This document shows positions 2,909 through 19,933 of a stretch of 64,000 nucleotides of DNA, in pieces. A program made the translations under genes and the position numbers. The DNA lies in NCBI GenBank assembly GCA_040878185.1, contig JBBDMS010000021.1, forward strand, positions 52,667 to 116,666, in the 5' to 3' direction. How positions within the stretch are numbered: position 1 is the stretch's first letter; each line of letters starts with the position of its first letter. The DNA comes from Dongiaceae bacterium (GTDB taxonomy: Bacteria; Pseudomonadota; Alphaproteobacteria; Dongiales; Dongiaceae). A model generated the notes under the pieces. It searched no databases. It saw nothing but the letters and a program-made list of their open reading frames with translations, and had not been told where the DNA came from.

Positions 2909-4078
2909 ATGCGAATATCATCCCTGCAATATGGCCCGATTGGGGCAGGAATGGCTCATACGATGGACTATGATGCACCGGACACAGAGTGGATGACCAT
3001 CGTGACCGAGACGATACAGGAACAGGTCGGAACAGCCCTGCCGCGCGTCTGGCTGCTGCTCGGCAATCGCGCCGGCGACAATGCACAGATCGCAGCGCTG
3101 GGTGAAGCGCTCGGCTGGCCGGTCGAGATCAAGCACCTCACCTTCAACGCCTTGCACCACAACCGTAACCTGTTCCTCGGCGCCTCGCGCCGGACGCTGG
3201 ACCGCGCCAAGTCCGACAAACTGGACGCGCCCTGGCCGGATCTGGTCATCGCCGCGGGACGGCGCAGCGCACCGATCGCGCGATGGGTCCGGCGCCGTTC
3301 CGGCGGCAAGACCCGCCTTGTCCATATCGGGCGGCCCTGGGCGCCGGCGGGCTGGTTCGACCTCATCATCACGACCCCGCAATACGGCATGCGCTGGCGC
3401 CCGAACGTGCTGGTCAACGCAGCACCCCTGCACGCCATGACGCCCGAGCGCATGGAGGTGGCCGCCACGCTCTGGCAGTCGACGCTGGCCCACCTGCCCC
3501 GGCCCTGGACCGCGCTTTTGATCGGTGGCCCGAGCGCCCCCTACCGGTTCGGTCCGGCCGAAGTCCGCGCGCTGATCGACCAGGCGGTCGCCACGACACG
3601 GGCGAGCGGCGGCAGCCTGCTGGTGACCACCAGCGGACGGACCCCCGGCTCGGTCGGCCCGGCGCTCGAAGCCTGGCTCGGCGATGTCGCGCACCATCTC
3701 TTTTTGTGGCGCAAGGGCCAGGGCGACAATCCCTATTACGGTTACCTCGCTTTGGCCGACCGGTTCATCGTCACCGGCGACAGCGTGTCGATGATGACAG
3801 AGGCGACCGCGACCGGACGGCCGGTCGCGATCTATCGGCCGGCCGAGCGGCGGCGTCTGATCGGCAAGCGGGCGACGCGCGTGCCGCCGCTGCGCTGGCT
3901 GGTCGATGTCGGACTGTTGCCCCATCCGCGCGACATCGGCGCGTTCTGCGACCGCCTCGTCGCGTCGGGCCGCGCTTATTATCTCGGCGATCCGCTACCC
4001 GAGCGCAGCAGTCCCGCGCCCGAAGACATGAGCCGCGCCGTCGAGCATGTGCGCGCTTTGTTCAAGACGGAAGGTTGA
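2909..4078 (+). CDS. ELM1/DUF1022-family protein (predicted GT-B-like glycosyltransferase); start uncertain (2909, 2951, 2963 or 2993)
   Basis: LLLGNRAGDNAQIAALGEALGWP near the N-terminus and VTGDSVSMMTEA near the C-terminus are typical of bacterial 'mitochondrial fission ELM1' family proteins. Divergent from the a2M gene. Confidence 0.6.
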   Translation: MRISSLQYGPIGAGMAHTMDYDAPDTEWMTIVTETIQEQVGTALPRVWLLLGNRAGDNAQIAALGEALGWPVEIKHLTFNALHHNRNLFLGASRRTLDRAKSDKLDAPWPDLVIAAGRRSAPIARWVRRRSGGKTRLVHIGRPWAPAGWFDLIITTPQYGMRWRPNVLVNAAPLHAMTPERMEVAATLWQSTLAHLPRPWTALLIGGPSAPYRFGPAEVRALIDQAVATTRASGGSLLVTTSGRTPGSVGPALEAWLGDVAHHLFLWRKGQGDNPYYGYLALADRFIVTGDSVSMMTEATATGRPVAIYRPAERRRLIGKRATRVPPLRWLVDVGLLPHPRDIGAFCDRLVASGRAYYLGDPLPERSSPAPEDMSRAVEHVRALFKTEG

Positions 4079-4109: not shown

Positions 4110-5000
4110 TCAGGCAGCAGCCAAGGGCGGGGTGCGGCGCAACAGATCGAGGGCGTCGTGGCGCAGATGGTTCTGGGCCATTTCCTTGCGGATCAGATCC
4201 TCGCCGACGATCCCCTTCTCCAGGCACTCGCGCAGCAGGCCAAAGAAGAAGCGCTCCTGATTGGGATCGGGATGCGGACGATAGGACGTGACGGCCGGGA
4301 TCGGCACGATCCGCGTCAGCCAGTCGGCGGGCACGATGCCGAGCAGCCGCGCGCGTAGCGTGAAGTCGACCGGCAGGCCGGTCTTCCAGGGCTGGGTCCG
4401 ACGCTTGGTGTTGTGCAGCAGCCTTGTGTTCGCATCGAGATGATCGAAATCGTTCCACATCGGCTCCAGATCGCCGATCGACACGCGCGGCTCGTACTGA
4501 AGCTGGGTCCATTTCAGATAGTCGCGCTTGAATGCAAACAGCTCGTCGAACTGCTCGGCGCAGCGCCAGTGCCGCAGCTTCGCGCAATCGAGCAGCATCA
4601 CCGACGTCGCCTTATATTGTTCGCTGCCGTTATGGCCGGGCCGCGGCCGGGCCCAGATGGCCTTGTCCTGCATATCGCGATCGAGCAGTTCCCAGATATC
4701 GCCGACCGCGAAGATATCCGGGTCCATGATGACGGCGCGGCCTTCGTATCCCATCAGTTCGGGCGGCAAGAACCGCAGCGGCGTGAAGCTCTGCAGATCG
4801 TCCATCTCCCAGACGCGCTTTTCGTTGCCGCGCAGGAAGCGCTGGCCTTCGCGCGCCTTGAGAAAATCGAAATCCTCGGCATGCAGAATCCGGATCTCGA
4901 ACCGGTCGGCATGGCGTGAATTGCGCTCGAGCGAATAGGCCGAGGCGATGGCCCCGATCCGCTGGCGTCGATTGGTGTGGATGAAGACGCAGGATCGCAA
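4110..5000 (-). CDS. GT8-like nucleotide-diphospho-sugar glycosyltransferase (putative)
   Basis: TTG start. DxD-type motif VIMDPDIFAVGDIWELL and SVMLLDCAKL resemble GT8 (LYLDxDxxV ... GVMLINL). Family assignment made by eye only. Confidence 0.45.
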   Translation of the reverse strand: MRSCVFIHTNRRQRIGAIASAYSLERNSRHADRFEIRILHAEDFDFLKAREGQRFLRGNEKRVWEMDDLQSFTPLRFLPPELMGYEGRAVIMDPDIFAVGDIWELLDRDMQDKAIWARPRPGHNGSEQYKATSVMLLDCAKLRHWRCAEQFDELFAFKRDYLKWTQLQYEPRVSIGDLEPMWNDFDHLDANTRLLHNTKRRTQPWKTGLPVDFTLRARLLGIVPADWLTRIVPIPAVTSYRPHPDPNQERFFFGLLRECLEKGIVGEDLIRKEMAQNHLRHDALDLLRRTPPLAAA

Positions 5001-5111: not shown

Positions 5112-6179
5112 CTAGCGGGTTCCCGCCGGCCTGCTGCCCAGCGGCGTCAGGGCAACCTGCTTCAGCGCATCGTACAGCCCTCCGCATTCCGCCTTCAGGC
5201 GCGCCATCTGAGCCGGATCGATATCGGGCTGCCGCGTGAGTACGCCGGAATCGACCTGGCCGATGCTCTTGTCGAAACTGCTGTTCGATTCGATCGGCGC
5301 GCTGTTGAAGGTCGGTATCGTCATCGCCGGATGGAAGTCGATGCCGATCTTCATGCAGAGCGCGCGCATCATGCCGGGCGTGTCGCGGACCAGTTCGTCG
5401 AGACCGATGCAGATCACTTTGTCGCCGTAAGTCCGTTTGTTGCGCAAGGTCGCCTCGGCGGACCGGCGCCACCAGGCGATCGCCGTTTCGAACTGGTCAT
5501 ATTGCCGCTTGCGCGCCTTGCCGCGATTTTTCGACAAAGCCGAGGCGAGCCAGCTCACCGGATCGCGCACAATCGAGACCAGATGCCCATCGGGATAGTC
5601 GCGGAAATATCGCGCGATGGAATCCGGATTCATCGCAAGGCCGGGGCAGAAGGCGCTGATACAGGCCGCCTCGTCATAGGATACGATCCTGTTGCCCCAG
5701 GACTTGAAGAACGCGTGGTAGAAGCAATCGAGCGCGCCGCGCTGCGTTGCCGGCCGCTTCGCCTCGATCAGGTTGCAGAAGATGCGATGGTGAAGCCCGA
5801 CATCGTAGTCGAACGCGTGCATCCGGGTCGGGTTCTTGGCCTTTGAATAACCCGTGCGCGCCCGTTCGATAAAACGCCCGTCGACAAGATAGCGAAACAA
5901 AGCGCGTGCGCCTTTCGTCGGATCGAGATCGGGCCAGTCGGCCTTGCCCCTGGCAATATGCATGTCACCGGGATAGGCGGCGATCTGCGGATGACCGTCG
6001 AGAAGCTGGCTGAGCAGTGTGCCGCCCGAGCGATGGATCTGCGAGATCAGAATGACATTGCGACCAACCGGGCCCAGATCGGAGGCGATATCCGGCACCG
6101 GCGATCGGGGCGATGGAATGAGCCAGCGGTCGCGCAGCCGCTTGAAGCGTCGAAGGCCGGAACTTACCGCGCGAACCAT
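5112..6179 (-). CDS. sulfotransferase family protein (1 of 3)
   Basis: PAPS 5'-phosphosulfate loop HRSGGTLLSQLL and 3'-phosphate motif VSIVRDPVSW. ATG start at 6179. Confidence 0.7.
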   Translation of the reverse strand: MVRAVSSGLRRFKRLRDRWLIPSPRSPVPDIASDLGPVGRNVILISQIHRSGGTLLSQLLDGHPQIAAYPGDMHIARGKADWPDLDPTKGARALFRYLVDGRFIERARTGYSKAKNPTRMHAFDYDVGLHHRIFCNLIEAKRPATQRGALDCFYHAFFKSWGNRIVSYDEAACISAFCPGLAMNPDSIARYFRDYPDGHLVSIVRDPVSWLASALSKNRGKARKRQYDQFETAIAWWRRSAEATLRNKRTYGDKVICIGLDELVRDTPGMMRALCMKIGIDFHPAMTIPTFNSAPIESNSSFDKSIGQVDSGVLTRQPDIDPAQMARLKAECGGLYDALKQVALTPLGSRPAGTR

Positions 6180-7622: not shown

Positions 7623-9155
7623 ATGCAGAAACCGTTCAAGTTCAACGACCTGTTCATCTACGACCTGGCCAATAATCACCAGGGCGATATCGAGCACGCA
7701 TCCAACATCATTCGCGGGATCGGCAAGGCGAACGCCGACGCCGGCGCGCGTGGCGCGTTCAAGTTCCAGTTTCGCCAGCTCGACACGTTCATTCATCCCG
7801 ACTACCAGACCCGGAACGATCTCAAGTTCATTAAACGGTTCAACGAAACCCGGATGTCGATGGACGATTTCCGGAAACTTGCCGACCTGATCCGCGCGCA
7901 GGGCATGCTCACCATGTGCACGCCGTTCGACGAGGAATCGGTCGACGTCATCTGCGACATGGGCCTCGACATCATCAAGGTGGCGAGCTGCTCGGCCGAC
8001 GATCGGCCGCTGCTCGAGAAGGTCGCGCGCGTCAATCGGCCGCTGGTCGTGTCAACGGCGGGCCTGCGGATCGAGGAGATCGACTGGCTGGTTAATTTCC
8101 TCGAAAGCGAGCGTGCGGATTTCGCGCTGATGCATTGCATCGCGGAGTACCCGACCGACGACGACAAGCTGCAGCTCAACCAGATCGAGTTTCTGCGTGA
8201 CCGCTATCGCACCGTTCCGATCGGCTGGTCGACGCATGAGGATCCGGACAACACGGACCCGATCAAGCTCGCCTACGCCAAGGGCGCACGGCTGTTCGAA
8301 CGGCATGTCGGCATCAAGACCGACAAGTATCCGCTGAACGCCTATTCCTCGACGCCCGAGCAGATCGCAAAATGGCTCGCCGCGCATAAATATGCGAAGG
8401 GCATGCTGGGCGCGGCCGAACGCGCGCCCTCCTCGCCGCTCGAACGCAAGACGCTCAAGGAACTGAAGCGCGGCGTCTATGCCAAGCGCACGCTCGCGAA
8501 GGGCAAGCCGATCAAGCGCGAGGATGTGTTCTTTGCGATGCCGGTCGAGGAGGATCAGCTTCTCAGCGGCCAGTGGCGCCCGGGCATGATCGCGCCCGCC
8601 GACATCGCCGCGAAGGCGGCGTTGCCCGAAAGCATGTCCAAGGAAGCGCTGACCGACGAACAACTCGTCTATCAGATCATGCTGCAGGTCCGCGCCATGC
8701 TGAACAAGGCGAACATCCATATCAATGAGGATGCATCGATCGAGATCTCGCATCATTACGGGTTGCGGCGTTTCCGCGAATATGGCGCGGTCATCGTCAC
8801 CTGCATCAACCGCAGTTACGCGAAGAAGCTGGTGATCCAGCTGCCGCGCCAGAAACATCCCTATCACCATCACAAGCAGAAGGAAGAAACCTTCCAGCTT
8901 CTGGATGGCGACATGGAGATCGTGAAGAACGGCGAGCGCATCTCGATGCGGCCGGGCGACACGTTCCTGGTCGAGCCCGACGCCTGGCACAAGTTCCATA
9001 CGTTGGACGGCGCCATCGTCGAGGAAGTCTCGACCACGCATTTCAACAACGATTCCTTCTACGAAGATCCGGAGATCGCCAAGAAGGAACGCCATGAGCG
9101 CAAGACCCAGGTCGACAACTGGCTGGCATATTTCCGGTCCAAGCATGCGCTTTAA
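7623..9155 (+). CDS. neuB: NeuB-family nonulosonate (sialic-acid-type) synthase fused to a C-terminal cupin domain
   Basis: NeuB-like TIM barrel (IIKVASCSADD, MHCIAEYPT, GWSTHE) and a SAF-like segment (GVYAKRTLAKGKPIKREDVFF). An extra ~150 aa forms a cupin: HPYHHHKQKEETF...GDTFLVEPDAWHKFH...EEVSTTHFNNDSFYED. Confidence 0.8.
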   Translation: MQKPFKFNDLFIYDLANNHQGDIEHASNIIRGIGKANADAGARGAFKFQFRQLDTFIHPDYQTRNDLKFIKRFNETRMSMDDFRKLADLIRAQGMLTMCTPFDEESVDVICDMGLDIIKVASCSADDRPLLEKVARVNRPLVVSTAGLRIEEIDWLVNFLESERADFALMHCIAEYPTDDDKLQLNQIEFLRDRYRTVPIGWSTHEDPDNTDPIKLAYAKGARLFERHVGIKTDKYPLNAYSSTPEQIAKWLAAHKYAKGMLGAAERAPSSPLERKTLKELKRGVYAKRTLAKGKPIKREDVFFAMPVEEDQLLSGQWRPGMIAPADIAAKAALPESMSKEALTDEQLVYQIMLQVRAMLNKANIHINEDASIEISHHYGLRRFREYGAVIVTCINRSYAKKLVIQLPRQKHPYHHHKQKEETFQLLDGDMEIVKNGERISMRPGDTFLVEPDAWHKFHTLDGAIVEEVSTTHFNNDSFYEDPEIAKKERHERKTQVDNWLAYFRSKHAL

Positions 9156-9762
9156 GGCGGTCGTCTTCGATTTCGACGGCACGCTTATCGATTCGGCCGA
9201 CGCCAAGCGCGATGCGTTCTTCCGCCTGTTTCCGGCGGCGGAGCCTTATCGCGCCATCGTCAATCGCGTACTGACCGCGGACCCGGACGGATCGCGCCAT
9301 GTCGTCATCCCGCGCATGATCGAAGCGATGACCGCTAAAAAGCTCGCCCTTCCGCACGGCCATAATGCGACCGACCGCATCGGTGCCTATGCGCAGGCAG
9401 TCTATGCGGCGCAGCGCGCGGCCGCGGAATGCCCCGGCGCCGAAACCCTGCTGCGCGCGCTCAAGGGTCACGCAGCCCTCTATATCAGCTCGAACACCCC
9501 CGAACCCGATCTCGGCACGCTGGTTGCCGCGCGAGGCTGGAGCGAACTGGTTGACGGTCTCTTCGGTCATCCGCGCGACAAGAGCGAAACGCTCGCGTTG
9601 CTGGTCGAGCGTCACGATGCGGCGAAGGACGAGATCGCCGTTGTAGGCGATGGCGAGAGCGACGAACGCGCGGCATACGCGATCGGCTGTCCGTTCTTCC
9701 GGGTCTGCGGCCCCAAGGCACTCGCCGATGTCGGGCGCAAGCTCGGGCTCGAACATGTTTGA
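9145..9762 (+). CDS. HAD-superfamily (subfamily IA-like) phosphatase
   Basis: Motif I VVFDFDGTLID, motif II ISSNTP, motif IV VVGDGESD. Its ATG at 9145 overlaps the neuB stop (9153-9155). Confidence 0.75.
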   Translation: MRFKAVVFDFDGTLIDSADAKRDAFFRLFPAAEPYRAIVNRVLTADPDGSRHVVIPRMIEAMTAKKLALPHGHNATDRIGAYAQAVYAAQRAAAECPGAETLLRALKGHAALYISSNTPEPDLGTLVAARGWSELVDGLFGHPRDKSETLALLVERHDAAKDEIAVVGDGESDERAAYAIGCPFFRVCGPKALADVGRKLGLEHV

Positions 9763-10474
9763 GGGCAAGCGCGTCCTGGTCGTCGTGCCGGCGCGCGGCG
9801 GCAGCCAGGGCGTCAAGCTGAAGAACCTGCGCGAGATCGGCGGGGTTCCGTTGGTCGTACAAGCCGGACGGATCGCGATCGCACTCGATTTTGCCGATCG
9901 CTGCATCGTCTCGACCGATCACGCCGAGATCGCCCGCGTCGCGACGGAAGCCGGGCTTGCCGCGCCGTTTGTCCGACCCGAGGCGCTTTCGGGCGCAGTC
10001 ATCAGCGATCTACAGGTTCTGACGCACGCGCTCGAGGAAATGGAGCGCATCGACGGCCGGCGCTACGACATCGTCGTGATGCTTCAGCCGACTTCGCCGA
10101 GCCGCACCGTGCAGCATGTGCGCGACACGGTTACCCTACTGGTTCGCGGCGCCTTCGATGCGGTCTGGACCGTCAGCGAGAGCGACAGCAAGGCCCATCC
10201 GCTGAAGCAACTGACCGTGGGCGAGGGCGGCGGGCTCGACTACTACGATTCCAAGGGTGCTGCGATCGTGGCCCGCCAGCAGCTTCAGCCGGTCTATCAC
10301 CGCAACGGCATTACCTATGCGTTCACGCGTGCCTGCCTGCTCGACCAGAAAACAATCAAAGGCGCGCGTACCGGCGCGCTCGTCGTCGAGGGTCCGGTCG
10401 TCAATATCGACACCGAACTCGACCTCGAATGGGCGAATTTCCTGCATCAGCGCGCCACCACCGCGCGGCCCTAG
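9755..10474 (+). CDS. neuA: acylneuraminate cytidylyltransferase family (CMP-nonulosonate synthetase)
   Basis: VVVPARGGSQGVKLKNL and MLQPTSPSR are canonical CMP-NeuAc/CMP-Kdo synthetase motifs. Its start overlaps the HAD stop (ATGTTTGA). Confidence 0.8.
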   Translation: MFEGKRVLVVVPARGGSQGVKLKNLREIGGVPLVVQAGRIAIALDFADRCIVSTDHAEIARVATEAGLAAPFVRPEALSGAVISDLQVLTHALEEMERIDGRRYDIVVMLQPTSPSRTVQHVRDTVTLLVRGAFDAVWTVSESDSKAHPLKQLTVGEGGGLDYYDSKGAAIVARQQLQPVYHRNGITYAFTRACLLDQKTIKGARTGALVVEGPVVNIDTELDLEWANFLHQRATTARP

Positions 10475-10484: not shown

Positions 10485-11786
10485 TCAGCCGCGCGCGGGC
10501 GCGTGGGGAAAGGCTTCGGCGAAACGCACCGGCCAGGTTTCGATCGGGAACGACTGGAACGAGCCGTCGTTCACGATGAGATCGTGCCGCGCCAGCCGGT
10601 CCGCATGGCGTTGGCAGAACGTGGCCCAGGAATCGTACCAGTCGTTCAGAAAAACGCCGCTTTCGTACTTCTTCAGAAGATCGCGGTCGCGCTTGCGCTG
10701 GCGGTTGGTGCGATCCGACCGGGCCATCTCGCCGGACTGGATATGAGCGCGGAGCCGTTCGCCCTGCGCCATCAAGGTCAGAACCGTCACGCGATCGGCA
10801 ACTCCCATCAAATGCAGCACCGGATCGCGATCGTAGGACCGGATGCCGGTGCGCGACGGGCGCAGGAAATCGTAATGCAACAGCACGCGCTCGTTGCGAC
10901 CGTTCGGCATCGAATCCGCTTCCGACGCCTGCAGGAGCTGCCAGTCTGAGCCGTCCAGACCGTATTGGGCGCGCAGCGACGCATCCGCCATCAGCCGGTC
11001 GATCAACGTGCTCTTCCCCACGCTCGTCGGCCCGGTGACAATCGCGAGATGCCCGATGCGGCGCTTGCGCGCTTCGACCAGCACACGGCCCTTGAACGGC
11101 GAGCGGCTGATCGTAACAGGCTCGAATGCGTTCGTGTGCACGTTGAGCACGATTTCGAGCGCACCTGGTGTGAAGAGATAGGTGCGCCCCGCCGCATCGC
11201 CGCGCTTCTTCGGGATTCCGAGAAACATCGCCGGCGAACCGATGCCGAAGACGCGAAGCGGGTTGATCCGGTCGCGCACGACATCGCGCCAGGTCGGCAC
11301 GGCGACTTCCAGAACCAGCCGGTCGCGCGTCATCCGCATCATCTTCTGCAACCCGCCAAGCGGATCGAACAGATGATGCAGCACGTTCAGACAGGCCACC
11401 GTATCGAACTGCCGTCCCCGATCGTCCCATTCCTCGAAATTGGCGCGGATATATTCAGGCCGGACCTCAAGTAATTCGGCGAACTCGCGGGCCTGACGCA
11501 GATTGCGCGGGTCGGTCTCGATACCGGTGGCCGTGGCGGCGCCGCGCTGCAGCGCCTCGACGCAGAAATAGCCGAGATAGCTGCCGATATCGAAGAACGT
11601 CTTGCCGTGAAAATCGTCGCCGAAGAGACGTGGCAGCAGATAACTGCGATCATAACCCGGCGTCGTGCCGCCATCGGGCAGGACGAACGCCTGATATTCC
11701 GGCGCCTCGTCGAGCAACCGCTGCAGACGCGCATGCCATTCGGGATCGCGATCCGGCTGCGGCACCGTCACTTTGCGGTCGTTCAT
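10485..11786 (-). CDS. fusion protein: class I SAM-dependent methyltransferase (N-terminal) + P-loop NTPase/kinase-like domain (C-terminal), paralog A
   Basis: MTase motif I FFDIGSYLGYF and CLNVLHHL. Walker A VTGPTSVGKST, Walker-B-like VLLHYD. ATG at 11786 (MNDRKV) avoids overlap with the upstream gene. Colinear with the 16834-18087 product. Confidence 0.65.
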   Translation of the reverse strand: MNDRKVTVPQPDRDPEWHARLQRLLDEAPEYQAFVLPDGGTTPGYDRSYLLPRLFGDDFHGKTFFDIGSYLGYFCVEALQRGAATATGIETDPRNLRQAREFAELLEVRPEYIRANFEEWDDRGRQFDTVACLNVLHHLFDPLGGLQKMMRMTRDRLVLEVAVPTWRDVVRDRINPLRVFGIGSPAMFLGIPKKRGDAAGRTYLFTPGALEIVLNVHTNAFEPVTISRSPFKGRVLVEARKRRIGHLAIVTGPTSVGKSTLIDRLMADASLRAQYGLDGSDWQLLQASEADSMPNGRNERVLLHYDFLRPSRTGIRSYDRDPVLHLMGVADRVTVLTLMAQGERLRAHIQSGEMARSDRTNRQRKRDRDLLKKYESGVFLNDWYDSWATFCQRHADRLARHDLIVNDGSFQSFPIETWPVRFAEAFPHAPARG

Positions 11787-11796
11787 GCGCGGCGGG

Positions 11797-12735
11797 TCAC
11801 AACGAAATTGCGAGGCGCTGGATCTCGTCCAGATCGAGCGCACGAGAGAGCGTGTCGACGGGCCAGTCGGCCGGGCTCAGCTCGGGTGCGTAGATATCGG
11901 TGTACTGGATCAGCAGCATGACCCGCGTTTTACTGTTCTGCCGCGAGCCATAATGCAGACAGCGCGACGTGTCGACCAGCATGCTTTGGCCCGGCTGGCC
12001 GGTCAGCTTCACTTCGCGGCTCGGACCCAGAAACCGGTCGACCTCTTCGATCGTCAGCCGCCCGCGGTCATAATTCAGCCCTTCGACCACGCGCTCGGAT
12101 TCGTCCGCCGGCAGGAAGGTGAACGGCCCGTGCTCGTCGGTCACGTCGTCGACGCACACGAACAACTTGACCTGACGGTCATCGGCGAAATCGAGATGAT
12201 AGAGCTGGCTGCCGATCTCGGAGAGATTCGGCAGGCTGACCATGACCGACACATCGCTCAGGATCGGCACCGCGCCGAGATAGCGGCTCACCGCATCGAG
12301 GACCGGGCGCGCCAACGCGAGGCGCATAATGTCGAGATACTGCGCAGTCGCGCGCTTCTGCGTGGCATAGACCAGGAATTCCTTGCGCGAGGCACCGTGA
12401 TCGTAACGCTGCAGCGCTCCGGTGCGTTCGCTCTCGCGAAAGACTTCCATGCCCTGTTTTACAGCCGGCGCGATCTCGGGCAGGCGGTTCGGTGCGACGG
12501 CGGCACAGGCACGCGCCCGATCGATCGCAACTGCATCGCTGGCAGCGACGCCCATTTGCCGCGCAAGCTCGGGACGATGCAGATAGGGAAACGGATTCAT
12601 CCCGATGCCGACCGCACGGCTGATACGGATCGCCGGCACGCGCGGCACCCCGAGACGCTTCGCCAGGAACAGATTGAGGTTCCGGCTGGTTGCGTAACGG
12701 GCCTTGGCATAAGACTGGCGAAGCGACTGGCTCAT
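11797..12735 (-). CDS. Fe(II)/2-oxoglutarate-dependent oxygenase-like protein (PhyH-like), putative
   Basis: HxD facial-triad candidate LYHLDFAD, distal CLHYGSRQNSKTR (His plus Arg), and GPFTFLP. Confidence 0.5.
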   Translation of the reverse strand: MSQSLRQSYAKARYATSRNLNLFLAKRLGVPRVPAIRISRAVGIGMNPFPYLHRPELARQMGVAASDAVAIDRARACAAVAPNRLPEIAPAVKQGMEVFRESERTGALQRYDHGASRKEFLVYATQKRATAQYLDIMRLALARPVLDAVSRYLGAVPILSDVSVMVSLPNLSEIGSQLYHLDFADDRQVKLFVCVDDVTDEHGPFTFLPADESERVVEGLNYDRGRLTIEEVDRFLGPSREVKLTGQPGQSMLVDTSRCLHYGSRQNSKTRVMLLIQYTDIYAPELSPADWPVDTLSRALDLDEIQRLAISL

Positions 12736-12979: not shown

Positions 12980-13873
12980 ATGCAAGACGCCCCGCCGCCC
13001 TGGACCGAACGCGCCGCTTTGGTCTACGGGCCCCGCAAAGCCGGTACCACCTTGTTGCTGAACCTGCTGGACGGGAGCGACGCGCTATTGGCGTTTCCGA
13101 GCGAAGTGAAGCTGAAAGCGCTGCATCGCATCCCCGCCGGCGCGCATTCGCGTGAGACCTATCTGGCGCGATCGCGCATCGCCGAGGTCGACGCGGCCCG
13201 CCTGTCGCAGGATCGCTACCAGGCGCTTTGGGCAGCGGTCGATCCTAAAGCCGCCGCCGGCAGGCTTTGCACGCTGCTGCGCCTCGACGCATGGCATGTG
13301 CACCAGACCGCGGCGACGGCGCCGCGCGAACCGCAACTCTGGTGCGCCAAAGAGGTCGGCGGCGATACCGATGCGATCCTCGATCTGTGGCGGCGCTGTT
13401 TCCCCGATGCGCCGGTCCTGTTCATTCTGCGCAATCCCCTCATGGTCACGCGGGCCGTGTTGCAGGACCGCCGGCGCAAGGATCGACGATTGAGCATCGC
13501 CGAGATCGTCCGCGAAACCGCCGACCCGATGCGCGTGGTGGCGGCGCAGAGCCGTCATCTCGGCGATCCGCGCCTGCTCGCGATTGCATACGAGGACATG
13601 GTGACCGACACGCCCGCGACGATGCGACGCATCGCAGCGTTCCTCGGCATCCCCTTCGATGCGATCCTGTTGCAACCGACATTGTTCGGCGAACCAATCG
13701 TGGTGCGAACCTCGTCGCGTTCGACCACCGAAGTGTTTCAGGCTTCGGAGGAATGGGAGGATGGGCTGACCCGTCGGGAGCAGTTCTGGGTCAGGCTCAC
13801 GGCCGCTGTGCTCGGCTGTCTGCCCGGCTATCGCGTCGATTATGCATGGCTGCGGCAACGCGTGGCCGATTAG
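12980..13873 (+). CDS. sulfotransferase family protein (2 of 3)
   Basis: GPRKAGTTLLLNLL (5'-PSB loop) and FILRNPLMVTRA (3'-PB). Confidence 0.7.
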   Translation: MQDAPPPWTERAALVYGPRKAGTTLLLNLLDGSDALLAFPSEVKLKALHRIPAGAHSRETYLARSRIAEVDAARLSQDRYQALWAAVDPKAAAGRLCTLLRLDAWHVHQTAATAPREPQLWCAKEVGGDTDAILDLWRRCFPDAPVLFILRNPLMVTRAVLQDRRRKDRRLSIAEIVRETADPMRVVAAQSRHLGDPRLLAIAYEDMVTDTPATMRRIAAFLGIPFDAILLQPTLFGEPIVVRTSSRSTTEVFQASEEWEDGLTRREQFWVRLTAAVLGCLPGYRVDYAWLRQRVAD

Positions 13874-14202: not shown

Positions 14203-15222
14203 ATGAACCCCGATAGCGGCGTCTATCGCAACCCGCCGTTGGAGGATCCGGTTCGGGTCATCTATGTCTGCTGCCACGGGCGAAGCGGCTCGACATTGCT
14301 CGGTGCCATCGCCGGCTTGCTGCCTCAGCACAGCTTCGTCGGCGAAGTGCGTACGATCTGGGAGGATGGTGTCGACAACAACAGGAATTGCGGCTGCGGC
14401 GAACCGTTCCGGAGCTGCCGCTTCTGGAACGAAGTGTTTAAGCGCGCCTATGGCGGGTTCGACACGCCGGCGGCCATGAAAACGCGCGACCTGCTGACGC
14501 GGCTTATGAAGGTCAACAGCAGGCCCGCTCTGTGGTGGGCGCTGCTGCGCGAAAACCGCCGGCACGAGACAACTCGCGCGTTGGCCGATGCGCTCGCCCC
14601 GCTCTATCGCGCCATCCACGACGTATCCGGTGGGCAGATCATCGTCGACACCTCCAAGCATGCACGGTTTGGTTTCGTCATTGCCAACATTCCCGGTGTC
14701 GATATCCGCTTCGTCAATCTGATCCGCGATGTTCGCGGCGTCATCTTTTCCCGTGCGCGACCGGCGCTGATGCGCGACGGCAGCACGCGACATGCGCAAC
14801 GCTCGAAGCAGCCGCACTACAGAACGGGAACCGTGTTGGGGCGTTGGCTCTTCCGGAATGCCCTCGCGATGCGCCTCGTTCGTCGCCATGGCGGCATTCG
14901 CGTACTTTATGAAGACTTCGTGCATGACCAGAAGCCCGCGCTCGTCGCATTGAGCGACAACGATCGCGCGCGGATCGCGCTGGATCGGCTGGCGTACCCG
15001 GATGCGGCGGAGATCGTCCAGCATCAGTTGGCGGGCAACTGGATCCGCAACCTGAAGATCGACACCTCGGAGCGTTGGCCCGACGAGCTGCCTCGTCCCG
15101 TGCAGCGGATCGCGACATTCTTCTCGTGGCCACTTCGGCGACGCTATCGCTACGAAGTGCAACAGCCGAGCGGCTTCGCCGAGCGTCCCGACACGAGGCA
15201 GAGCGCAAGAGCGGCTCGCTAG
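14203..15222 (+). CDS. sulfotransferase family protein (3 of 3)
   Basis: CCHGRSGSTLLGAI (5'-PSB) and VNLIRDVRGVIFS (3'-PB). Contains a Cys cluster CGCGEPFRSC. Confidence 0.7.
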   Translation: MNPDSGVYRNPPLEDPVRVIYVCCHGRSGSTLLGAIAGLLPQHSFVGEVRTIWEDGVDNNRNCGCGEPFRSCRFWNEVFKRAYGGFDTPAAMKTRDLLTRLMKVNSRPALWWALLRENRRHETTRALADALAPLYRAIHDVSGGQIIVDTSKHARFGFVIANIPGVDIRFVNLIRDVRGVIFSRARPALMRDGSTRHAQRSKQPHYRTGTVLGRWLFRNALAMRLVRRHGGIRVLYEDFVHDQKPALVALSDNDRARIALDRLAYPDAAEIVQHQLAGNWIRNLKIDTSERWPDELPRPVQRIATFFSWPLRRRYRYEVQQPSGFAERPDTRQSARAAR

Positions 15223-15332
15223 GCTCGAAATCGCACAATCGCTGTGTTAGGTTCGCGCGGCCTGCGAACCTGTCCCACCACCGCGCTTCCGGCCGCGCCA
15301 CGCGGCCCGAACCCGATCGAGCCCGCCCATTA

Positions 15333-16700
15333 ATGTCCCGTATACCGCCCGAGACCCTGGTCATTCCGGTCGAGACCCTGAACCGGGAGTTCGACGGCAA
15401 GCTATTGCTCGCGTTGGCCGCTGCCGAACGCGGCTATCGGGCGATCGTCGGTGGACGAACCCGCCTCCATCGGCATCTGACCGACCTGCCGCCCTCGATC
15501 TATCTCAGCAAGGGCATCCGCACCGGCAATCGCGTGATCCTCTCGCTGCTCGAGAAGCTCGGCCATACCGTGGTCGCGCTCGAGGAGGAAGGGCTCGTGC
15601 GCTTTTCCGACGAAGCGTACCTGATGATGCTCGATGTAGAAACGTTCAACCGCGCGCAGATGCTGTTTGCCTGGGGCCATGACAATGCCGAGGTGTGGCG
15701 GCGGTTCGGCGGCTATCGCGGTACGCCCATCATCGAGGCCGGCAACCCGCGCATGGACATGCTGCGACCCGAAGTCCGTAATTTCTACACCGACGATGTG
15801 GCGGCGATCCGGCAACGCTACGGCCGCTTCGCGCTCTTCAACAGCAATTTCAGTTTCGTCAATCATTTCATTCCCGGCCATATCCGCTTCCGCATTCCGG
15901 CCAATGCACGCTCGGAACGCTACGACCAGATGCGCAGCGGCGTGTATCAGCACAAAAAAGCGTTGTTCGACAGTTTCTGCGCGCTGATCCCGTCGCTAAG
16001 CAAAGCCGTGCAGCCGCACAATCTGGTGATTCGCCCGCATCCATCCGAGAACCGGCAGACCTGGAGAGATGTCGCAGCGGGCCTGCCCAACGTGCATGTC
16101 GTGTATGAGGGTACTGTCGTGCCGTGGCTGCTGGCCGCCGACGTGTTGGTGCATAACAGCTGCACGAGCGGCGTGGAGGCAGCCATCCTCGGCACGCCCG
16201 CCTTGTCCTATCGTCCGGTTTGGTCGGCGGAGTTCGATCCGCCCTTGCCGAACGATGTCAGCAGTGAGTTCGACGATGCAGCGGCGCTGGGCGATGCGGC
16301 GCAGGCGATCCTCGCGCGCAATTCGGCGGAGCGCTCGCTCTCGCCGGCGAACTATGAGCGGTTGTCCCATCACGTCGCGGCGCTCGACGGTAAACTGAGT
16401 TGCGACCGGATTCTCGATGCGCTGGTCGAACAGCAGGACCGGTTTGCGTCGATGCCGGCCCCAGGCTTGCTCGACCGGGCCATCGGTCATGCCGGCGTCG
16501 CCGCCCGCAATGCGCGACGGGCGATCACGACCCGGATGATGGGCCGCAGCAGTGCGACCTATACCGCCTACAAATTTCCGGGACTGGACGAGGCCTATGT
16601 CGCCACCCGGATCGAACGGTTTTGCACCCTCCTCGGGCGGTTCGACGGCATCGGCGTCCGACGCCTTCGGGACGATATCTTTCTGCTGGAACGGCGCTGA
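15333..16700 (+). CDS. surface-carbohydrate biosynthesis protein, GT-B-like (candidate nonulosonate/glycosyl or phospho-glycosyl transferase)
   Basis: ATG at 15333 (MSRIPPETL). C-terminal Rossmann-like IRPHPSE ... VLVHNSCTSGVEAAILGTPAL is typical of GT-B enzymes. From memory it resembles the family annotated 'surface carbohydrate biosynthesis protein' that accompanies nonulosonate loci. Confidence 0.5.
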   Translation: MSRIPPETLVIPVETLNREFDGKLLLALAAAERGYRAIVGGRTRLHRHLTDLPPSIYLSKGIRTGNRVILSLLEKLGHTVVALEEEGLVRFSDEAYLMMLDVETFNRAQMLFAWGHDNAEVWRRFGGYRGTPIIEAGNPRMDMLRPEVRNFYTDDVAAIRQRYGRFALFNSNFSFVNHFIPGHIRFRIPANARSERYDQMRSGVYQHKKALFDSFCALIPSLSKAVQPHNLVIRPHPSENRQTWRDVAAGLPNVHVVYEGTVVPWLLAADVLVHNSCTSGVEAAILGTPALSYRPVWSAEFDPPLPNDVSSEFDDAAALGDAAQAILARNSAERSLSPANYERLSHHVAALDGKLSCDRILDALVEQQDRFASMPAPGLLDRAIGHAGVAARNARRAITTRMMGRSSATYTAYKFPGLDEAYVATRIERFCTLLGRFDGIGVRRLRDDIFLLERR

Positions 16701-16833: not shown

Positions 16834-18087
16834 TTGAACGAAACCGGCTGGACCGAAGCGCGCATCCGCGACCTGCTCGCCACGAACGCCTTTACCTATC
16901 AGAATGTGAAGCTGCCGCACGGGCTGTCGACCGGCGGGAAAGACCGCTCCAAGACGGCGCGCGCCATTTTTCCAGCCGCAATACCCGGACGCTCGGTTTT
17001 CGATATCGGTTGCATGTACGGTTTCTTCTGTTTCGAAGCCGAGGATCGCGGCGCGACGCAAGCTGTCGGCGCAGACATCGATCCGGAGAACGTGCGCAAA
17101 TGCCGCCTGCTGGCGGAAGTCCGCGGCTCGAATGCGCAGTTCGTCTATTTCGATATCGAAGGCGACGAGATTCCACAGCAGTACGACTATGTGCTGTGCC
17201 TGAACGTGTTGCACCATCTGCGCAATCCGATCGGCGCGCTGGAGAAGATGATCCGCGCCACGCGCGAGCGTCTTGTTCTCGAAATCGCCTCGTTTGGGCC
17301 CAACGACCGCCGGAAGAACGGCGTGTCGAGACTCGCCGCCGCCTTCCTGCGCCGCTTGCCTGTCATGTACGTGCCCGGCTCGTCTTCCTGGGGGCGCAGC
17401 ACGAGCCAGACGTTTTTCATCACGGAAAAGGCGATCGAAACGCTGCTGCTGGCGCATCGCGCGTCGTTCGCAAAGATCGACTTCATCGATACCGGGCATA
17501 AGGGTCGTTACATCGCGGTCGCGCACAAGCGCCGCATCGGACATCTCGTCGTCGTGGCGGGGCTGCAGGCATCCGGCAAATCGACGCTGATCGAAGAGAT
17601 TCTTTCGAAATCGGGATCGCTGATCGCGAAGTATATCGACCTTGATCCGTCGAAAGCCTGGTCGGTGCAGCGCTTCGGCAGTCTGGTCGAGAACCGGCAG
17701 GCCGAGCACCCGAACCTGATCCTGCATTACAACATCTCGAAGCATCTCATCGACGGCGATCTGTTCCATCACAGCCGGGCGCTGGCCGACGTGATGGCGA
17801 CGGCCGAGAAGGTCACCATTGTGACCGTCTGGTGCCCGCGCGAACGGCTACTGCAGCAGTTCCGCGAAGGCCGCACCGGCAAACATCGGAAGACGATGCT
17901 CTCCCGCCAGCATCGCAAGAAAATCAAGCAGCTCTCGGCGCTGTACGAAAGCGAGACCGCCCTGCAGACGATGTTCGACGAATGGTTCGCTTTCGTGAAA
18001 CGCCGGTCGGACCCCGGATTCGTGGTCGAATACGACAAGGACTACCGGGTTTCGACGCTGGCTGCGTGGAATCCGACCCCGCTTTGA
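16834..18087 (+). CDS. fusion protein: class I SAM-dependent methyltransferase + P-loop NTPase/kinase-like domain, paralog B
   Basis: TTG start 9 nt after GGAGG. VFDIGCMYGFF, CLNVLHHL; Walker A VAGLQASGKST; LILHYN. Colinear with the 10485-11786 product, including a shared KRRIGHL linker. Confidence 0.65.
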   Translation: MNETGWTEARIRDLLATNAFTYQNVKLPHGLSTGGKDRSKTARAIFPAAIPGRSVFDIGCMYGFFCFEAEDRGATQAVGADIDPENVRKCRLLAEVRGSNAQFVYFDIEGDEIPQQYDYVLCLNVLHHLRNPIGALEKMIRATRERLVLEIASFGPNDRRKNGVSRLAAAFLRRLPVMYVPGSSSWGRSTSQTFFITEKAIETLLLAHRASFAKIDFIDTGHKGRYIAVAHKRRIGHLVVVAGLQASGKSTLIEEILSKSGSLIAKYIDLDPSKAWSVQRFGSLVENRQAEHPNLILHYNISKHLIDGDLFHHSRALADVMATAEKVTIVTVWCPRERLLQQFREGRTGKHRKTMLSRQHRKKIKQLSALYESETALQTMFDEWFAFVKRRSDPGFVVEYDKDYRVSTLAAWNPTPL

Positions 18088-18154: not shown

Positions 18155-19933
18155 ATGACCGATCGAGACAAAATGAGCAATTCCGCGGAGAATCTCGAAT
18201 ACGGACCGAAATATTTCGGTGCCTTGCGCATCTTCGCGACGACTCCGCCACTCCGTCAGGTCACGGTGCTGGTCTGCCTTATCGCCGCGACCTTCGCGGA
18301 AGGATTTGGCATGGCCGCCATTCTGCCGCTGCTGTCGATCGCACAGGGCAACGCGGGCGGCGATTCGGCGCTGAACCAGTTGATCACCGGCCTGATCCAT
18401 TTCATGGGACTGCCGCTCGACCTCGGTGTGGTCGCCTGTCTCATGGTCGCCGGATTCGTGGTCAAGGCCGCGCTGACGATGTTCGCGATGGGTCATGTCG
18501 GATACACGGTGACCAAGGTGACGACGGGGCTGCGGCTCAAGCTGATCGGGCGTCTGCTCGAAGCGAAATGGAGCTATTTCGCGCATCAGCCGGTCGGCCG
18601 GTTCGGCAATGCGATCAGCGGCGAAGCGGCGCGCGCGGGCGACGCGTATCTCGCGGTCGCAACGCTGATCGCCCTCACCTTCCAGACCATCATGTATCTG
18701 ATCCTTGCCTATCTGATGTCGTGGAAGCTCGCGCTTGCCGCAATCGCCCTTGGCGCGGTCATCGTCGTATCGCTCAACTGGCTGATCCGGGTGACAAAGC
18801 GCGCCGGCCGGACCCAGACCGCGCGCACCCGAAGCCTGACCGCGGGCCTGACCGACGCGCTGATCGGATTGAAACCGCTCAAGGCGATGGCACGCAACCT
18901 GCGATTCACCACGTTGTTCGACCGCGACGTGAAGGAGCTGAAGCGAGCTCTGCGCCGTCAGGTGCTGGCACGGAACGCAACCCGCTCCATGCAGGAAGTG
19001 ATGATCGTCGTGGCGATCGCGGTCGGATTTTATGGCGCCGTCGAAGTCGCGCATTACCCGGTCGATCAGGTCATCGTCATCGCGCTGCTTCTCATCAAGA
19101 CCGTGCTCACCTTGGCGCAGTCCCAGCGCACCCTGCAATCGGTCAATCAATGCGAGAGCGCCTACTGGTCGCTGCACGAGACGATCAAGGAAGCGGAAGC
19201 CGCCAAGGAGATATTCGTCGGCACCCGTGAACCGACTCTCGAACGCAACATCGAGTTTCACAATGTTGCGTTCTCGTTCGGGACCAAGGATGTGTTGCGC
19301 GGCGTGTCGCTCGAGATTCCCGCAGGCCAGGTGACGACGGTGACCGGCGGTTCCGGTGCCGGCAAAACAACGACCGCCGATCTCGTGCTCGGCCTCTATA
19401 TGCCCAAATCCGGCGATATTACCGTCGACGGCGTGTCGCTCCGCAACATCGATCTCCATAAATGGCGGGCGATGACCGGCTATGTGCCGCAGGAAGTGAT
19501 CCTCTTTCACGACACGATTTACGCCAACATCGCGCTCGGCGATCCGGCCTTCGACCCCGAGACGGTGCGCAATGCACTGGAAGCGGCCGGCGCATGGGAG
19601 TTCGTCACGGAATTGCCCGATCGGATGGACAGCGTCGTCGGCGAGCGCGGTACGCTCCTCTCGGGCGGCCAGCGCCAGCGCATTGCGGTCGCCCGTGCGA
19701 TCGTGCATCGACCCAAGCTGGTCATCCTCGACGAGGCGACGAGTGCACTCGATCCCGAAACCGAGTTCGCGATCTGCAGCAATCTGAAGTCGCTATCGCG
19801 CCGCACGGGCCTCACCATTCTGGCGATCACGCATCAGCCGGCCTGGGTCGAGGCGGCGGACCGGCTCTATCGCATCGCCGACGGACGGGTCATCGAGCCC
19901 ACGCCGCAGAGCGCGGCGATGGCGGCTTCCTGA
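18155..19933 (+). CDS. ABC exporter, fused TMD-NBD (MsbA/lipid-flippase-like half transporter)
   Basis: Six-helix N-terminal domain. Walker A GGSGAGKTT, signature LSGGQRQRIAVARA, Walker B LVILDEATSALD. Confidence 0.85.
   Translation: MTDRDKMSNSAENLEYGPKYFGALRIFATTPPLRQVTVLVCLIAATFAEGFGMAAILPLLSIAQGNAGGDSALNQLITGLIHFMGLPLDLGVVACLMVAGFVVKAALTMFAMGHVGYTVTKVTTGLRLKLIGRLLEAKWSYFAHQPVGRFGNAISGEAARAGDAYLAVATLIALTFQTIMYLILAYLMSWKLALAAIALGAVIVVSLNWLIRVTKRAGRTQTARTRSLTAGLTDALIGLKPLKAMARNLRFTTLFDRDVKELKRALRRQVLARNATRSMQEVMIVVAIAVGFYGAVEVAHYPVDQVIVIALLLIKTVLTLAQSQRTLQSVNQCESAYWSLHETIKEAEAAKEIFVGTREPTLERNIEFHNVAFSFGTKDVLRGVSLEIPAGQVTTVTGGSGAGKTTTADLVLGLYMPKSGDITVDGVSLRNIDLHKWRAMTGYVPQEVILFHDTIYANIALGDPAFDPETVRNALEAAGAWEFVTELPDRMDSVVGERGTLLSGGQRQRIAVARAIVHRPKLVILDEATSALDPETEFAICSNLKSLSRRTGLTILAITHQPAWVEAADRLYRIADGRVIEPTPQSAAMAAS

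Follow-up and report, generated by a model that had tools for sequence, protein, structure and literature searches.

A 64,000-nucleotide stretch of a Dongiaceae genome (contig JBBDMS010000021.1 of assembly GCA_040878185.1; the whole stretch is called the window here) poses the question of what is done by paralog A, a protein that joins a class I S-adenosylmethionine (SAM)-dependent methyltransferase to a P-loop domain. A first-pass annotation had described it as a two-domain fusion whose C-terminal half belongs to no named family, and that description stands. A Pfam methyltransferase, a confident full-length model, homologues and coupling of the halves in both orders mark it as a genuine conserved protein, and no Pfam, NCBIfam or PDB family beyond the P-loop was found for the C-terminal half. 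Nor did literature searches return a description of the domain or of the fusion. The domain identities, the fold class, the conservation of the nucleotide-binding site, the obligate coupling of methyltransferase and P-loop and the genomic context are established. On these grounds we tentatively favor a reading in which the protein may be an ATP-dependent kinase and O-methyltransferase tailoring module for an anionic glycolipid, an analogue but not a homologue of WbdD; we hold this to be possible, at somewhat short of an even chance.

The fusion protein and its methyltransferase half

The features of paralog A are as follows (aa, amino acids).

10485..11786, minus strand: paralog A, 433-aa methyltransferase and P-loop fusion, stop codon included (open reading frame [ORF], start codon, translation)
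11061..11714, minus strand: class I SAM-dependent methyltransferase domain, aa 25-242 (Pfam, conserved columns, Foldseek)
11046..11066, minus strand: KRRIGHL junction, aa 241-247, end of the last methyltransferase strand and start of P-loop strand 1 (DSSP, conservation)
10512..11060, minus strand: C-terminal P-loop kinase-fold domain of an unnamed family, aa 243-425, about 190 aa (AlphaFold2, Foldseek, profile search)
11007..11033, minus strand: Walker A GPTSVGKST, aa 252-260 (conservation in 147 representative domains)
10857..10877, minus strand: H-Y-D-F-L-R-P motif, aa 304-310, at the end of strand 3, with a Walker-B-like Asp and Arg-Pro
10665..10763, minus strand: LID-like helix-loop-helix of variable length, aa 342-374 (DSSP, alignment; the LID label is putative)

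In the ORF list of the window the enclosing frame runs from 10485 to 11843 on the minus strand. The start at 11786 is borne out, since its ATG lies 10 nucleotides past the TGA of the upstream gene (11797-11799) and the closest homologue, P0001 (91% identical), likewise has 433 aa; the 93 homologues are mostly 405 to 475 aa long. Carriers of the family include Aestuariivirga litoralis, whose homologue WP_161957343.1 is from a cultured strain, and Taklimakanibacter albus. GC content by codon position is 0.66/0.46/0.78 and, in a window of 64% GC, the third-position value marks the frame as coding. Every motif that had been quoted for the protein was located: FFDIGSYLGYF at aa 64-74, CLNVLHHL at 132-139, KRRIGHL at 241-247, GPTSVGKST at 252-260 and VLLHYD at 301-306, the last ending in D306. 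A tblastn search of 72,556 plasmids gave no match to the protein.

Pfam places the methyltransferase at aa 50-173 with an E value of about 1e-10 and above gathering scores (Methyltransf_23, 40.9 bits against a cut-off of 27; Methyltransf_25, 39.8 against 27; Methyltransf_11, 39.0 against 21.2). These scores, together with the glycine-rich motif I (D-I-G-x-x-x-G), assign it to class I, and the AlphaFold2 model has the seven-stranded Rossmann-like fold with the reversed beta6-beta7 hairpin, with a predicted local distance difference test score (pLDDT) above 90 at aa 40-165 and 205-242. A conserved N-terminal element, Y31-Q32...G39..T42.G44.D46-R47, lies at 11646-11696, followed by motif I at 11565-11597, CLNVLHHL at 11370-11393 and FKGR at 11085-11096. 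Structural matches with E values of about 1e-10 include ChlM, CmoB, ToxA, EvdMO1 (bound to D-fucose) and NodS, so that the modeled half resembles generic small-molecule and sugar methyltransferases; WbdD was found neither in the sequence matches nor in the Foldseek top 50 for this half. A match to TIGR04290 (52.9 bits against a cut-off of 300) reflects generic methyltransferase similarity, and membership in CmoB or Methyltransf_9 was rejected (PF08003, 21.2 bits against 23.8; NF011650, 37 against 209; TIGR00452, 37 against 275).

The CmoB matches bear on the idea that the protein modifies RNA, as a CmoB-like tRNA methyltransferase joined to a P-loop domain of the polynucleotide kinase or PSTK type, in the manner of Hen1/Pnkp-type systems. 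CmoB gave the longest Foldseek alignments to the methyltransferase half, which also has sub-threshold Methyltransf_9 matches; PSTK and Clp1/Grc3 are among the weak matches of the P-loop domain, and some orphan copies of the family occur in housekeeping contexts. Every one of these matches is below the family cut-offs, however, and the genomic context is dominated by glycan, sulfotransferase and ABC exporter genes, with no RNA-related neighbors seen. We regard an RNA substrate as a very remote prospect.

The two halves are closely joined. In the full-length model (pLDDT 91.5; predicted template modeling score [pTM] 0.89) the last methyltransferase strand, aa 235-241, runs nearly straight into strand 1 of the P-loop domain, aa 243-252, as assigned by DSSP. 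KRRIGHL, which had been taken for a linker, is thus a structural junction between nearly continuous strands. The pTM of the model implies that the domains would be held in a fixed relative orientation. No PDB entry was found to share this two-domain architecture.

An unnamed branch of the P-loop kinase fold

The C-terminal half is strongly conserved, both at Walker A and beyond it. Across the 147 representative domains, Walker A is nearly invariant (G257, 99%; K258, 97%; S/T259, 91%), and H304 (84%), Y305 (93%), D306 (74%, with Asn in a further 21%), R309 (70%), P310 (71%) and T337 (93%) are widely kept. The LID-like segment ends in conserved K365-R366 and Y374, with R/K366 at 78%. Aligned over 51 full-length homologues, the signature beyond Walker A comprises W282, H304-Y305-D306-x-x-R309-P310, R320-D321, T337, L345, K365-R366, Y374, Y384 and W387. 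A GK[ST] motif with a conserved Thr is typical of Mg-nucleoside triphosphate (NTP) binding, and the aligned sequences present the pattern of a nucleotide-binding site under selection.

Family searches gave the domain no name. Pfam returns sub-threshold P-loop matches only and NCBIfam none; 32 aligned C-terminal domains compared with Pfam matched only the generic AAA_16, AAA_33, AAA_29 and AAA_18, all below threshold, and a domain profile run against PDB sequences aligned at Walker A alone (RecA, designed P-loop proteins, guanylate kinase P-loops). The predicted structure is more informative. The isolated domain was modeled with a mean pLDDT of 93.9 and a pTM of 0.90, and its best Foldseek matches in the PDB are adenylate kinases (3cm0, 6ln3) and guanylate, UMP/CMP, uridine-cytidine and shikimate kinases and PSTK. 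Most of the top 50, including all of the best-scoring matches and thymidylate kinases, are P-loop kinases rather than GTPases, AAA+, RecA-like proteins or sulfotransferases. Walker A (GxxxxGK[ST]) lies between strand 1 and helix 1, as in the P-loop kinase fold class sensu Leipe, Koonin and Aravind 2003. The model has several features in common with P-loop nucleotide and small-molecule kinases: a strand-Walker A-helix unit, a parallel sheet, and an acidic residue of Walker B type that closes a strand, with Arg after it. Following strand 4 it also has a helical insert that may correspond to a LID. The earlier suggestion of a kinase-like half therefore holds at the level of fold, and only at that level: template modeling (TM) scores are 0.36 to 0.46, identities 8 to 14% and the best E value 3.4e-5, so that the AlphaFold and Foldseek check that had been proposed did not yield confident modeling as any specific known enzyme. 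Profiles of the known kinases align at the P-loop only, and the domain has a signature of its own (W282, HYDxLRP, RD, T337, KR, Y374, Y384, W387).

Membership in described families was considered case by case. Adenylate or other nucleoside monophosphate kinases are excluded (hhalign against E. coli Adk, 1.5% probability; TM at most 0.46; no ADK Pfam match). The first-pass annotation had also set the domain apart from sulfotransferases and adenosine 5'-phosphosulfate (APS) kinases, and profile comparisons agree, being insignificant beyond Walker A, with neither family in the Foldseek top 50. Against E. coli CysC, hhalign covers only 23 to 26 Walker A columns, and there is no APS_kinase Pfam match. 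CysC carries an L-D-G-D-N-x-R motif directly after strand 2. The 'L-I-D-G-D-x-x-R-H' of domains of the paralog B type (below) was tried as a counterpart of the CysC 'L-D-G-D-N-V-R-H' and rejected, as Walker A alone aligns and the spacing is wrong, 'IDGD' lying about 60 aa from the Walker A Lys compared with about 24 aa in CysC. A diverged sulfotransferase was likewise rejected: against sulfotransferase profiles built from the loci themselves, hhalign gives 3 to 4% probability compared with 96.5% for a sulfotransferase-versus-sulfotransferase control, a sulfotransferase hidden Markov model (HMM) built from the loci matched none of the fusion proteins, and the 5'-phosphosulfate-binding (5'-PSB, PKxGTT) and 3'-phosphate-binding (3'-PB, R...S) motifs for 3'-phosphoadenosine 5'-phosphosulfate (PAPS) are absent from the domain. 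Paralog A has no Pfam match to Pkinase or APH. Because its kinase matches are at fold level and its profile comparisons are insignificant beyond Walker A, the domain as modeled is placed as an unnamed branch of the P-loop kinase fold class, in no recognizable described kinase or sulfotransferase family.

A widespread family in which the two halves stay together

The window has a second copy, paralog B, next to an exporter gene.

16834..18087, plus strand: paralog B, 417-aa methyltransferase and P-loop fusion, directly upstream of the ABC exporter (tblastn)
18155..19933, plus strand: MsbA/PglK/HepA-like ABC exporter with fused transmembrane and nucleotide-binding domains (TMD-NBD; Pfam ABC_membrane and ABC_tran)

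Paralog B is 34% identical to paralog A over aa 7-396 by tblastn, and its methyltransferase is recognized by Pfam. It has the Walker A sequence GLQASGKS (17560-17583) and the variant motif HYNISKHLIDGD (17725-17760). It matches exactly the public protein MEX0808001.1 from a Dongiaceae metagenome-assembled genome, and the cluster of paralog A contains MEX0807996.1 from the same contig.

The family as a whole is large. An exhaustive HMM search of 1.84 billion representative proteins recovered 1,300 clusters, defined at 50% identity, at an E value of 1e-3 or below and 893 at 1e-10 or below. By the genome scan the family is present in Alphaproteobacteria, Myxococcota, Planctomycetota, Verrucomicrobia, Nitrospirae, Cyanobacteria, Omnitrophota, Elusimicrobia and Patescibacteria. 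A family of about 1,300 clusters in at least nine phyla is unnamed, is covered by no model in Pfam or NCBIfam and lacks a solved structure; its P-loop domain is masked by the annotation 'class I SAM-dependent methyltransferase.'

Among the 150 best representatives, 84 have the methyltransferase followed by the P-loop in a protein of 360 to 500 aa, and 39 are short. Larger assemblies also occur: Sulfotransfer_1 with a degenerate methyltransferase and P-loop (P0118), methyltransferase and P-loop with Sulfotransfer_3 (P0136), glycosyltransferase family 2 (GT2) with methyltransferase and P-loop (P0178), a P-loop between two methyltransferases (P0108), tandem methyltransferase and P-loop pairs (P0094, P0095) and a doubled P-loop (P0182). 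In a genome scan, 13 loci matched the methyltransferase half alone, and 9 of these carry the P-loop domain immediately upstream. In L064, L067, L069, L070 and L072 (Verrucomicrobia, Solirubrobacterales) it is a separate gene adjoining the METHYLTRANSFERASE gene; in four others, from Planctomycetaceae, Thermoanaerobaculia and Gammaproteobacteria, it is fused in reverse order in proteins of about 425 aa.

L073:9365-10651, L076:9359-10660, L077:44-1315, L078:9368-10651: permuted fusions, P-loop N-terminal, same methyltransferase C-terminal

All of the permuted fusions bear HYN-x-[LI]-RP in place of HYD-x-x-RP. Truly methyltransferase-only loci number 4 of the 13, and the two inspected closely (Zavarzinia, Aestuariivirga) sit in unrelated contexts. 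An apparent split of the gene in L086 to L088 (P0120) is probably a frameshifted fusion, with differing frames and a 58-nucleotide overlap; the P-loop ORF of P0120 retains the last methyltransferase strand. The halves are therefore not scattered to unrelated loci, being fused in either order or encoded by neighboring genes. Fusion in both orders together with conserved adjacency provides strong evidence that the methyltransferase and P-loop modules would work together.

Such coupling might also be expected of a P-loop domain that only binds. It could anchor the methyltransferase to a phosphate or nucleotide group, be it polyprenyl diphosphate, the phosphate of lipid A or ceramide, or a nucleoside diphosphate (NDP)- or CMP-sugar, or it could be an ATP-gated regulatory or assembly domain. 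Conservation of Walker A where the Walker-B-like Asp can be replaced by Asn fits this alternative, as do the rigid packing against the methyltransferase, the specificity for one methyltransferase in either order and the frequency of CDP-hexose and CMP-ulosonic-acid genes among the neighbors. However, about a dozen further conserved residues (H304, Y305, R309, P310, D321, T337, R366, Y374, Y384 and W387) look like a catalytic pocket, standalone copies occur without any methyltransferase, and no precedent was retrieved. We consider a non-kinase binding module distinctly unlikely.

Association with sulfotransferases

The window contains three sulfotransferase genes.

5112..6179, minus strand: sulfotransferase (Sulfotransfer_3; Pfam E 7e-15)
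12980..13873, plus strand: sulfotransferase (Sulfotransfer_3; Pfam E 7e-17)
14203..15222, plus strand: sulfotransferase (Sulfotransfer_3; Pfam E 1.5e-6, 29.1 bits against a cut-off of 27)

We surveyed the context of 78 related loci, of which 63 are fusion loci used for clustering of neighboring ORFs. Among these 63, Sulfotransfer_1 recurs in 15 loci, GT4 in 10, CDP-hexose dehydratase in 10 and cytidylyltransferase in 7, with carbamoyltransferase, Sulfotransfer_3 and DegT in 5 each. ELM1-like proteins and MsbA-like ABC exporters are each found in 12 to 15 loci and the family of the 4110..5000 gene (below) in 9 to 14, and two to three fusion paralogs per locus are common. When loci of at least 20 kb are examined under strict thresholds, 17 of 30 have a sulfotransferase within 10 kb; a relaxed scan with joining of same-contig loci raises this to about 20 of 30, and in 15 cases the sulfotransferase is within 252 bp, that is, the adjoining gene. 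About nine well-sampled loci (some 30%) have no sulfotransferase, and the orphan copies in such loci lie beside PhoX/MotA, aspartate kinase or histidine kinase genes. Sulfotransferase-adjacent and sulfotransferase-free members carry the same active-site signature, which rules out the former as a special active-site subtype.

The sequence contexts indicate that the link survives removal of the methyltransferase, standalone P-loop copies lying beside sulfotransferases in 3 of 6 contexts. Two of them, P0143 and P0208, each abut a Sulfotransfer_1 gene. A third, P0161 (206 aa, 13 contigs), lies between the adenylation (A)-peptidyl carrier protein (PCP)-Sulfotransfer_3 module of a nonribosomal peptide synthetase (NRPS) and a standalone Sulfotransfer_3.

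L081:5001-5621 (GCA_022573605.1, JACZTQ010000011.1): MCH8950757.1, standalone P-loop protein P0161

The cluster around it encodes TubC_N-condensation (C)-PCP-thioesterase (TE), TubC_N-TauD, A-PCP-Sulfotransfer_3, an Asp/Glu racemase, Sulfotransfer_3 and a P450, and its product may be a natural product that is sulfated or offloaded by a sulfotransferase-thioesterase (ST-TE) route. The sulfotransferase association, which the first-pass annotation had missed, is new and is the strongest contextual signal for the P-loop module. Order-independent methyltransferase coupling and recurrence beside sulfotransferases mark the module as a coherent candidate tailoring system for the surface glycoconjugates of bacteria as well as for at least one NRPS product.

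The association opens a rival reading in which the P-loop domain is a noncanonical APS kinase, or otherwise takes part in making or handling PAPS, and supplies the donor to neighboring sulfotransferases; in that case the fusion would unite two enzymes of a single tailoring pathway, not two steps at one site. Sulfotransferases are the most frequent neighbors and are directly fused to the domain in P0118 and P0136, and they accompany standalone copies, including that of the A-PCP-ST cluster. The domain matches APS kinases (CysC, the C-terminal domain of NodQ, SxtO, CyrN) in being a sulfotransferase-associated P-loop protein of similar size and fold class, and its non-Walker motifs are conserved as for one common substrate. 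Clusters with sulfotransferases often have an APS kinase of their own, SxtO and CyrN being examples (PMC2885083). Neither in the window nor in any of the 78 loci were cysC, cysN or cysD found, an absence that does not decide the matter of PAPS supply either way, the loci having been chosen for the fusion. On the other side, HH-suite comparison with CysC aligns Walker A only, for the whole family and for the paralog B-type subset alike; the distance from Walker A to the acidic motif is about 24 aa in APS kinases and 48 to 60 aa in the domain; no APS kinase is in the Foldseek top 50; and the domain, unlike APS kinases, goes with a methyltransferase. In paralog B the putative active site is altered. 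A role in PAPS supply leaves several things unexplained: the loci that lack a sulfotransferase, some with orphans beside PhoX/MotA or aspartate kinase, the two to three divergent paralogs, the tandem duplications, the GT2 fusion and the order-independent coupling. We rate this, the main rival, as unlikely but serious. If it is true, an APS kinase analogue fills a gap in how dedicated sulfotransferases are fed where a local CysC is missing.

The sulfotransferase fold is derived from that of P-loop kinases (Leipe et al. 2003, as cited in PMC2938197), and the related superfold, shared loci and occasional shared polypeptide suggest a further alternative: the domain might be a new PAPS-using sulfotransferase that keeps a kinase-type Walker A, making the protein a bifunctional O-methyl and O-sulfo enzyme. 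This would account for the company of other PAPS users, the presence of several paralogs, the fusions with GT2 and with methyltransferases, the loci in which no other sulfotransferase occurs and the constancy of the cofactor-side motif, and the HH-suite alignment is colinear, with LLHYD on the strand of the sulfotransferase 'fTH' catalytic His. Yet that alignment is the insignificant one given above, the PKxGTT and R...S motifs are absent, Foldseek lists no sulfotransferase in its top 50, the domain has about 190 aa compared with 249 to 355 aa for the sulfotransferases scanned, and GK[ST] with a conserved Thr points to NTP binding. This alternative is a long shot.

CysC and Campylobacter Cj1415 are donor-activating kinases that act on the 3'-OH of a nucleoside-5'-X compound. 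It is conceivable, if improbable, and less of a long shot than a new sulfotransferase, that sulfotransferase, P-loop domain and methyltransferase form one undescribed group-transfer system with the P-loop domain as a new and non-homologous line of kinases for donor activation. Its substrate might be APS or another donor of the adenosine- or cytidine-5'-X kind, phosphorylated at the 3'-OH; the methyltransferase would modify the donor or the transferred group, and the sulfotransferase-fold partners would deliver it. Glycolipids and also nonribosomal peptides would in this way acquire a modified sulfate or phosphate group, for instance a methylated phospho- or sulfo-ester.

A candidate kinase and methyltransferase tailoring module

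Any reading has to reconcile a kinase-type fold with an intact Mg-NTP Walker A, methyltransferase coupling that is independent of domain order, and a strong but not universal association with sulfotransferases, which extends beyond glycan loci. In the reading that we favor, paralogs A and B would be soluble bifunctional tailoring enzymes at the cytoplasmic face, acting on a glycolipid or glycan intermediate before its export by the neighboring MsbA-like ABC transporter. The SAM-dependent methyltransferase at the N terminus would most likely methylate oxygen; the C-terminal domain would bind Mg-ATP through Walker A and phosphorylate a hydroxyl on that acceptor too. With its sites rigidly packed, the enzyme could install a phosphate plus a methyl group, or a methyl-phosphate, and the module, alongside PAPS-dependent sulfotransferases, would build a polyanionic, partly methylated surface glycoconjugate. 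The product in the window would probably be a glycosphingolipid bearing ulosonic acid, or a lipopolysaccharide (LPS)-like lipid. That the domain acts as a kinase, what its acceptor is and which reaction comes first we infer.

Site-specific tailoring by such a kinase and methyltransferase appears to fit the two to three divergent paralogs per locus, the tandem methyltransferase and P-loop pairs and the fusions to GT2, a second methyltransferase and sulfotransferases, as well as the rigid two-site architecture and the autonomous orphans. The loci without a sulfotransferase and the orphan copies indicate that the enzyme can act on its own. The context is likewise supportive, the neighbors being mostly glycan genes (sulfotransferases, KdoT-like proteins, GT4, CDP-hexose genes, carbamoyltransferases, ABC exporters).

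The closest described enzyme is WbdD, the chain terminator of the E. coli O9a O antigen, in which an N-terminal methyltransferase abuts a kinase of another fold and the two active sites cooperate in making a methyl phosphate (PMC3482155). Paralog A, judged by sequence and context, resembles it in having a class I methyltransferase at the N terminus directly against a kinase-type domain in one polypeptide, and in a probable glycan substrate and ABC-exporter-dependent pathway. The WbdD kinase, however, has the Hanks (eukaryotic) fold, whereas that of paralog A would be a P-loop domain of about 190 aa; WbdD has a long C-terminal coiled coil, whereas paralog A ends at aa 433, just past the P-loop domain; and WbdD works with WbdA and the ABC-2 transporter Wzm/Wzt, in loci with polymerizing mannosyltransferases, whereas none of these is present here and the sole exporter is the fused MsbA/HepA/PglK-like protein. 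Without a Hanks kinase, coiled coil or Wzm/Wzt, membership in the WbdD family is excluded. Of the analogy drawn in the first-pass annotation, the shared order of methyltransferase and kinase, with a different kinase fold, survives; the proposal of methyl-phosphate capping is unsupported, there being no Wzm/Wzt and no coiled-coil ruler.

Several observations weigh against a glycan kinase. The structural similarity to kinases is weak (TM 0.36 to 0.46), and the Walker-B-like Asp is replaced by Asn in 21% of domains, including all permuted forms. The acceptor-side signature HYDxLRP/RD/T/KR is nearly constant across differing glycan loci and phyla, for which a common small substrate is a better fit than diverse glycan acceptors. 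Standalone P-loop proteins beside sulfotransferases, one of them in an NRPS cluster, occur without nearby glycan genes, which a glycan-kinase role does not predict. The lack of Wzm/Wzt in the locus and of a coiled-coil ruler in the protein means that WbdD-type chain-length capping is not indicated, and the kinase and methyltransferase function is read from sequence, predicted structure and context.

If the protein proves to be an acceptor kinase, the WbdD-type combination of methyltransferase and kinase has been invented twice, independently. Whether acceptor kinase or APS kinase analogue, the outcome will improve the annotation of sulfated and methylated glycolipid loci and give a handle on the chemistry of a Dongiaceae locus that combines sphingolipid, ulosonic-acid and sulfation genes.

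The surrounding locus

The gene upstream of paralog A and the genes on the near side of the locus are listed here.

11797..12735, minus strand: operon partner, 312 aa, 10-nucleotide gap to the paralog A ATG
2909..4078, plus strand: ELM1-like/KdoT-like GT-B glycosyltransferase (Pfam Mito_fiss_Elm1, E 4e-67)
4110..5000, minus strand: unnamed recurrent partner, 296 aa (no Pfam or NCBIfam family)
7623..10474, plus strand: CMP-ulosonic-acid pathway (Pfam; NCBIfam NeuB/PseI/PseF-like, below cut-offs)
7623-9155: NeuB-like synthase with cupin
9094-9762: haloacid dehalogenase (HAD) phosphatase
9650-10474: CMP-sugar-type cytidylyltransferase
15075-16700: TIGR04396 'surface carbohydrate biosynthesis' protein (332 bits against a cut-off of 125; weak BFO_1060 glycosyltransferase match)
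In the locus, without coordinates: GFO/IDH/MocA oxidoreductase

Comparison of the operon partner with Pfam, NCBIfam and PDB sequences gave no match. The protein has 'YHLDF...CLHYGS', an H-x-D...H pattern suggestive of Fe(II)/2-oxoglutarate dioxygenases, and is conserved beside a sulfotransferase in L001-L003, L056 and L058. Neighborhoods of dioxygenase, methyltransferase and sulfotransferase genes, sometimes with PAPS synthetases, are described by Iyer, Aravind and co-workers (2010; PMC2938197). They share with the present operon, which has an H-x-D...H protein near sulfotransferases, a combination of hydroxyl-directed methylation and sulfation, but as described there they involve PhyH-methyltransferase fusions and peptide or collagen-like substrates; the passages of that paper on P-loop and sulfotransferase describe no P-loop kinase-fold module fused to a methyltransferase.

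Bacterial ELM1-like proteins are KdoT, a GT-B transferase of CMP-3-deoxy-D-manno-octulosonic acid (CMP-Kdo) (PMC10936431, PMC12856342), and on this basis the ELM1-like protein of the locus is a probable CMP-ulosonic-acid transferase. The protein has TTSGRTP, with one Arg kept, where KdoT has the conserved donor-carboxylate motif SRRT, a variant that may reflect a different ulosonic-acid donor. The 4110..5000 protein, one of the most constant partners of the fusion and usually found beside the ELM1-like gene, has a D-P-D motif and by its sequence looks like a GT-A glycosyltransferase. The NeuB-like synthase has a C-terminal cupin or D-lyxose-isomerase-like domain (aa 404-480), an unusual synthase-isomerase fusion that is conserved at 68 to 71% identity in L003, L004, L054, L056 and L058. 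The listed ORFs of the HAD phosphatase and the cytidylyltransferase overlap by 113 nucleotides and the Pfam match of the latter starts only at residue 44, which probably puts the true start of that gene downstream of 9650. The TIGR04396 protein travels with the NeuB, HAD and cytidylyltransferase genes in five to seven loci and is a candidate second ulosonic-acid transferase or polymerase. The NCBIfam matches of the ABC exporter fall below equivalog cut-offs.

Beyond the exporter is a set of lipid genes.

20010-21779: acyl-AMP ligase
22831-23121: small acyl carrier protein (ACP)-like ORF
23051-24343: serine palmitoyltransferase (NF047599, 653 bits against a cut-off of 500)
26362-27540: CDP-alcohol phosphatidyltransferase
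27596-28579: metallophosphoesterase
29106-31387: LptF/LptG permeases
31444-32259: fatty-acid hydroxylase
32272-33429: GNAT-like protein

The genes at 20010-24343 and 31444-33429 form a bacterial sphingolipid set, in which the GNAT-like protein could be a bacterial ceramide synthase. Because this set adjoins the glycan-tailoring locus, the decorated lipid may be a glycosphingolipid; going by its gene content, the locus would make a glycolipid, plausibly a glycosphingolipid, that bears ulosonic acid, is sulfated and methylated and leaves through an ABC flippase. The CDP-alcohol phosphatidyltransferase and an unassigned gene at 24426-25382 recur with the fusion in L025, L032 and L062.

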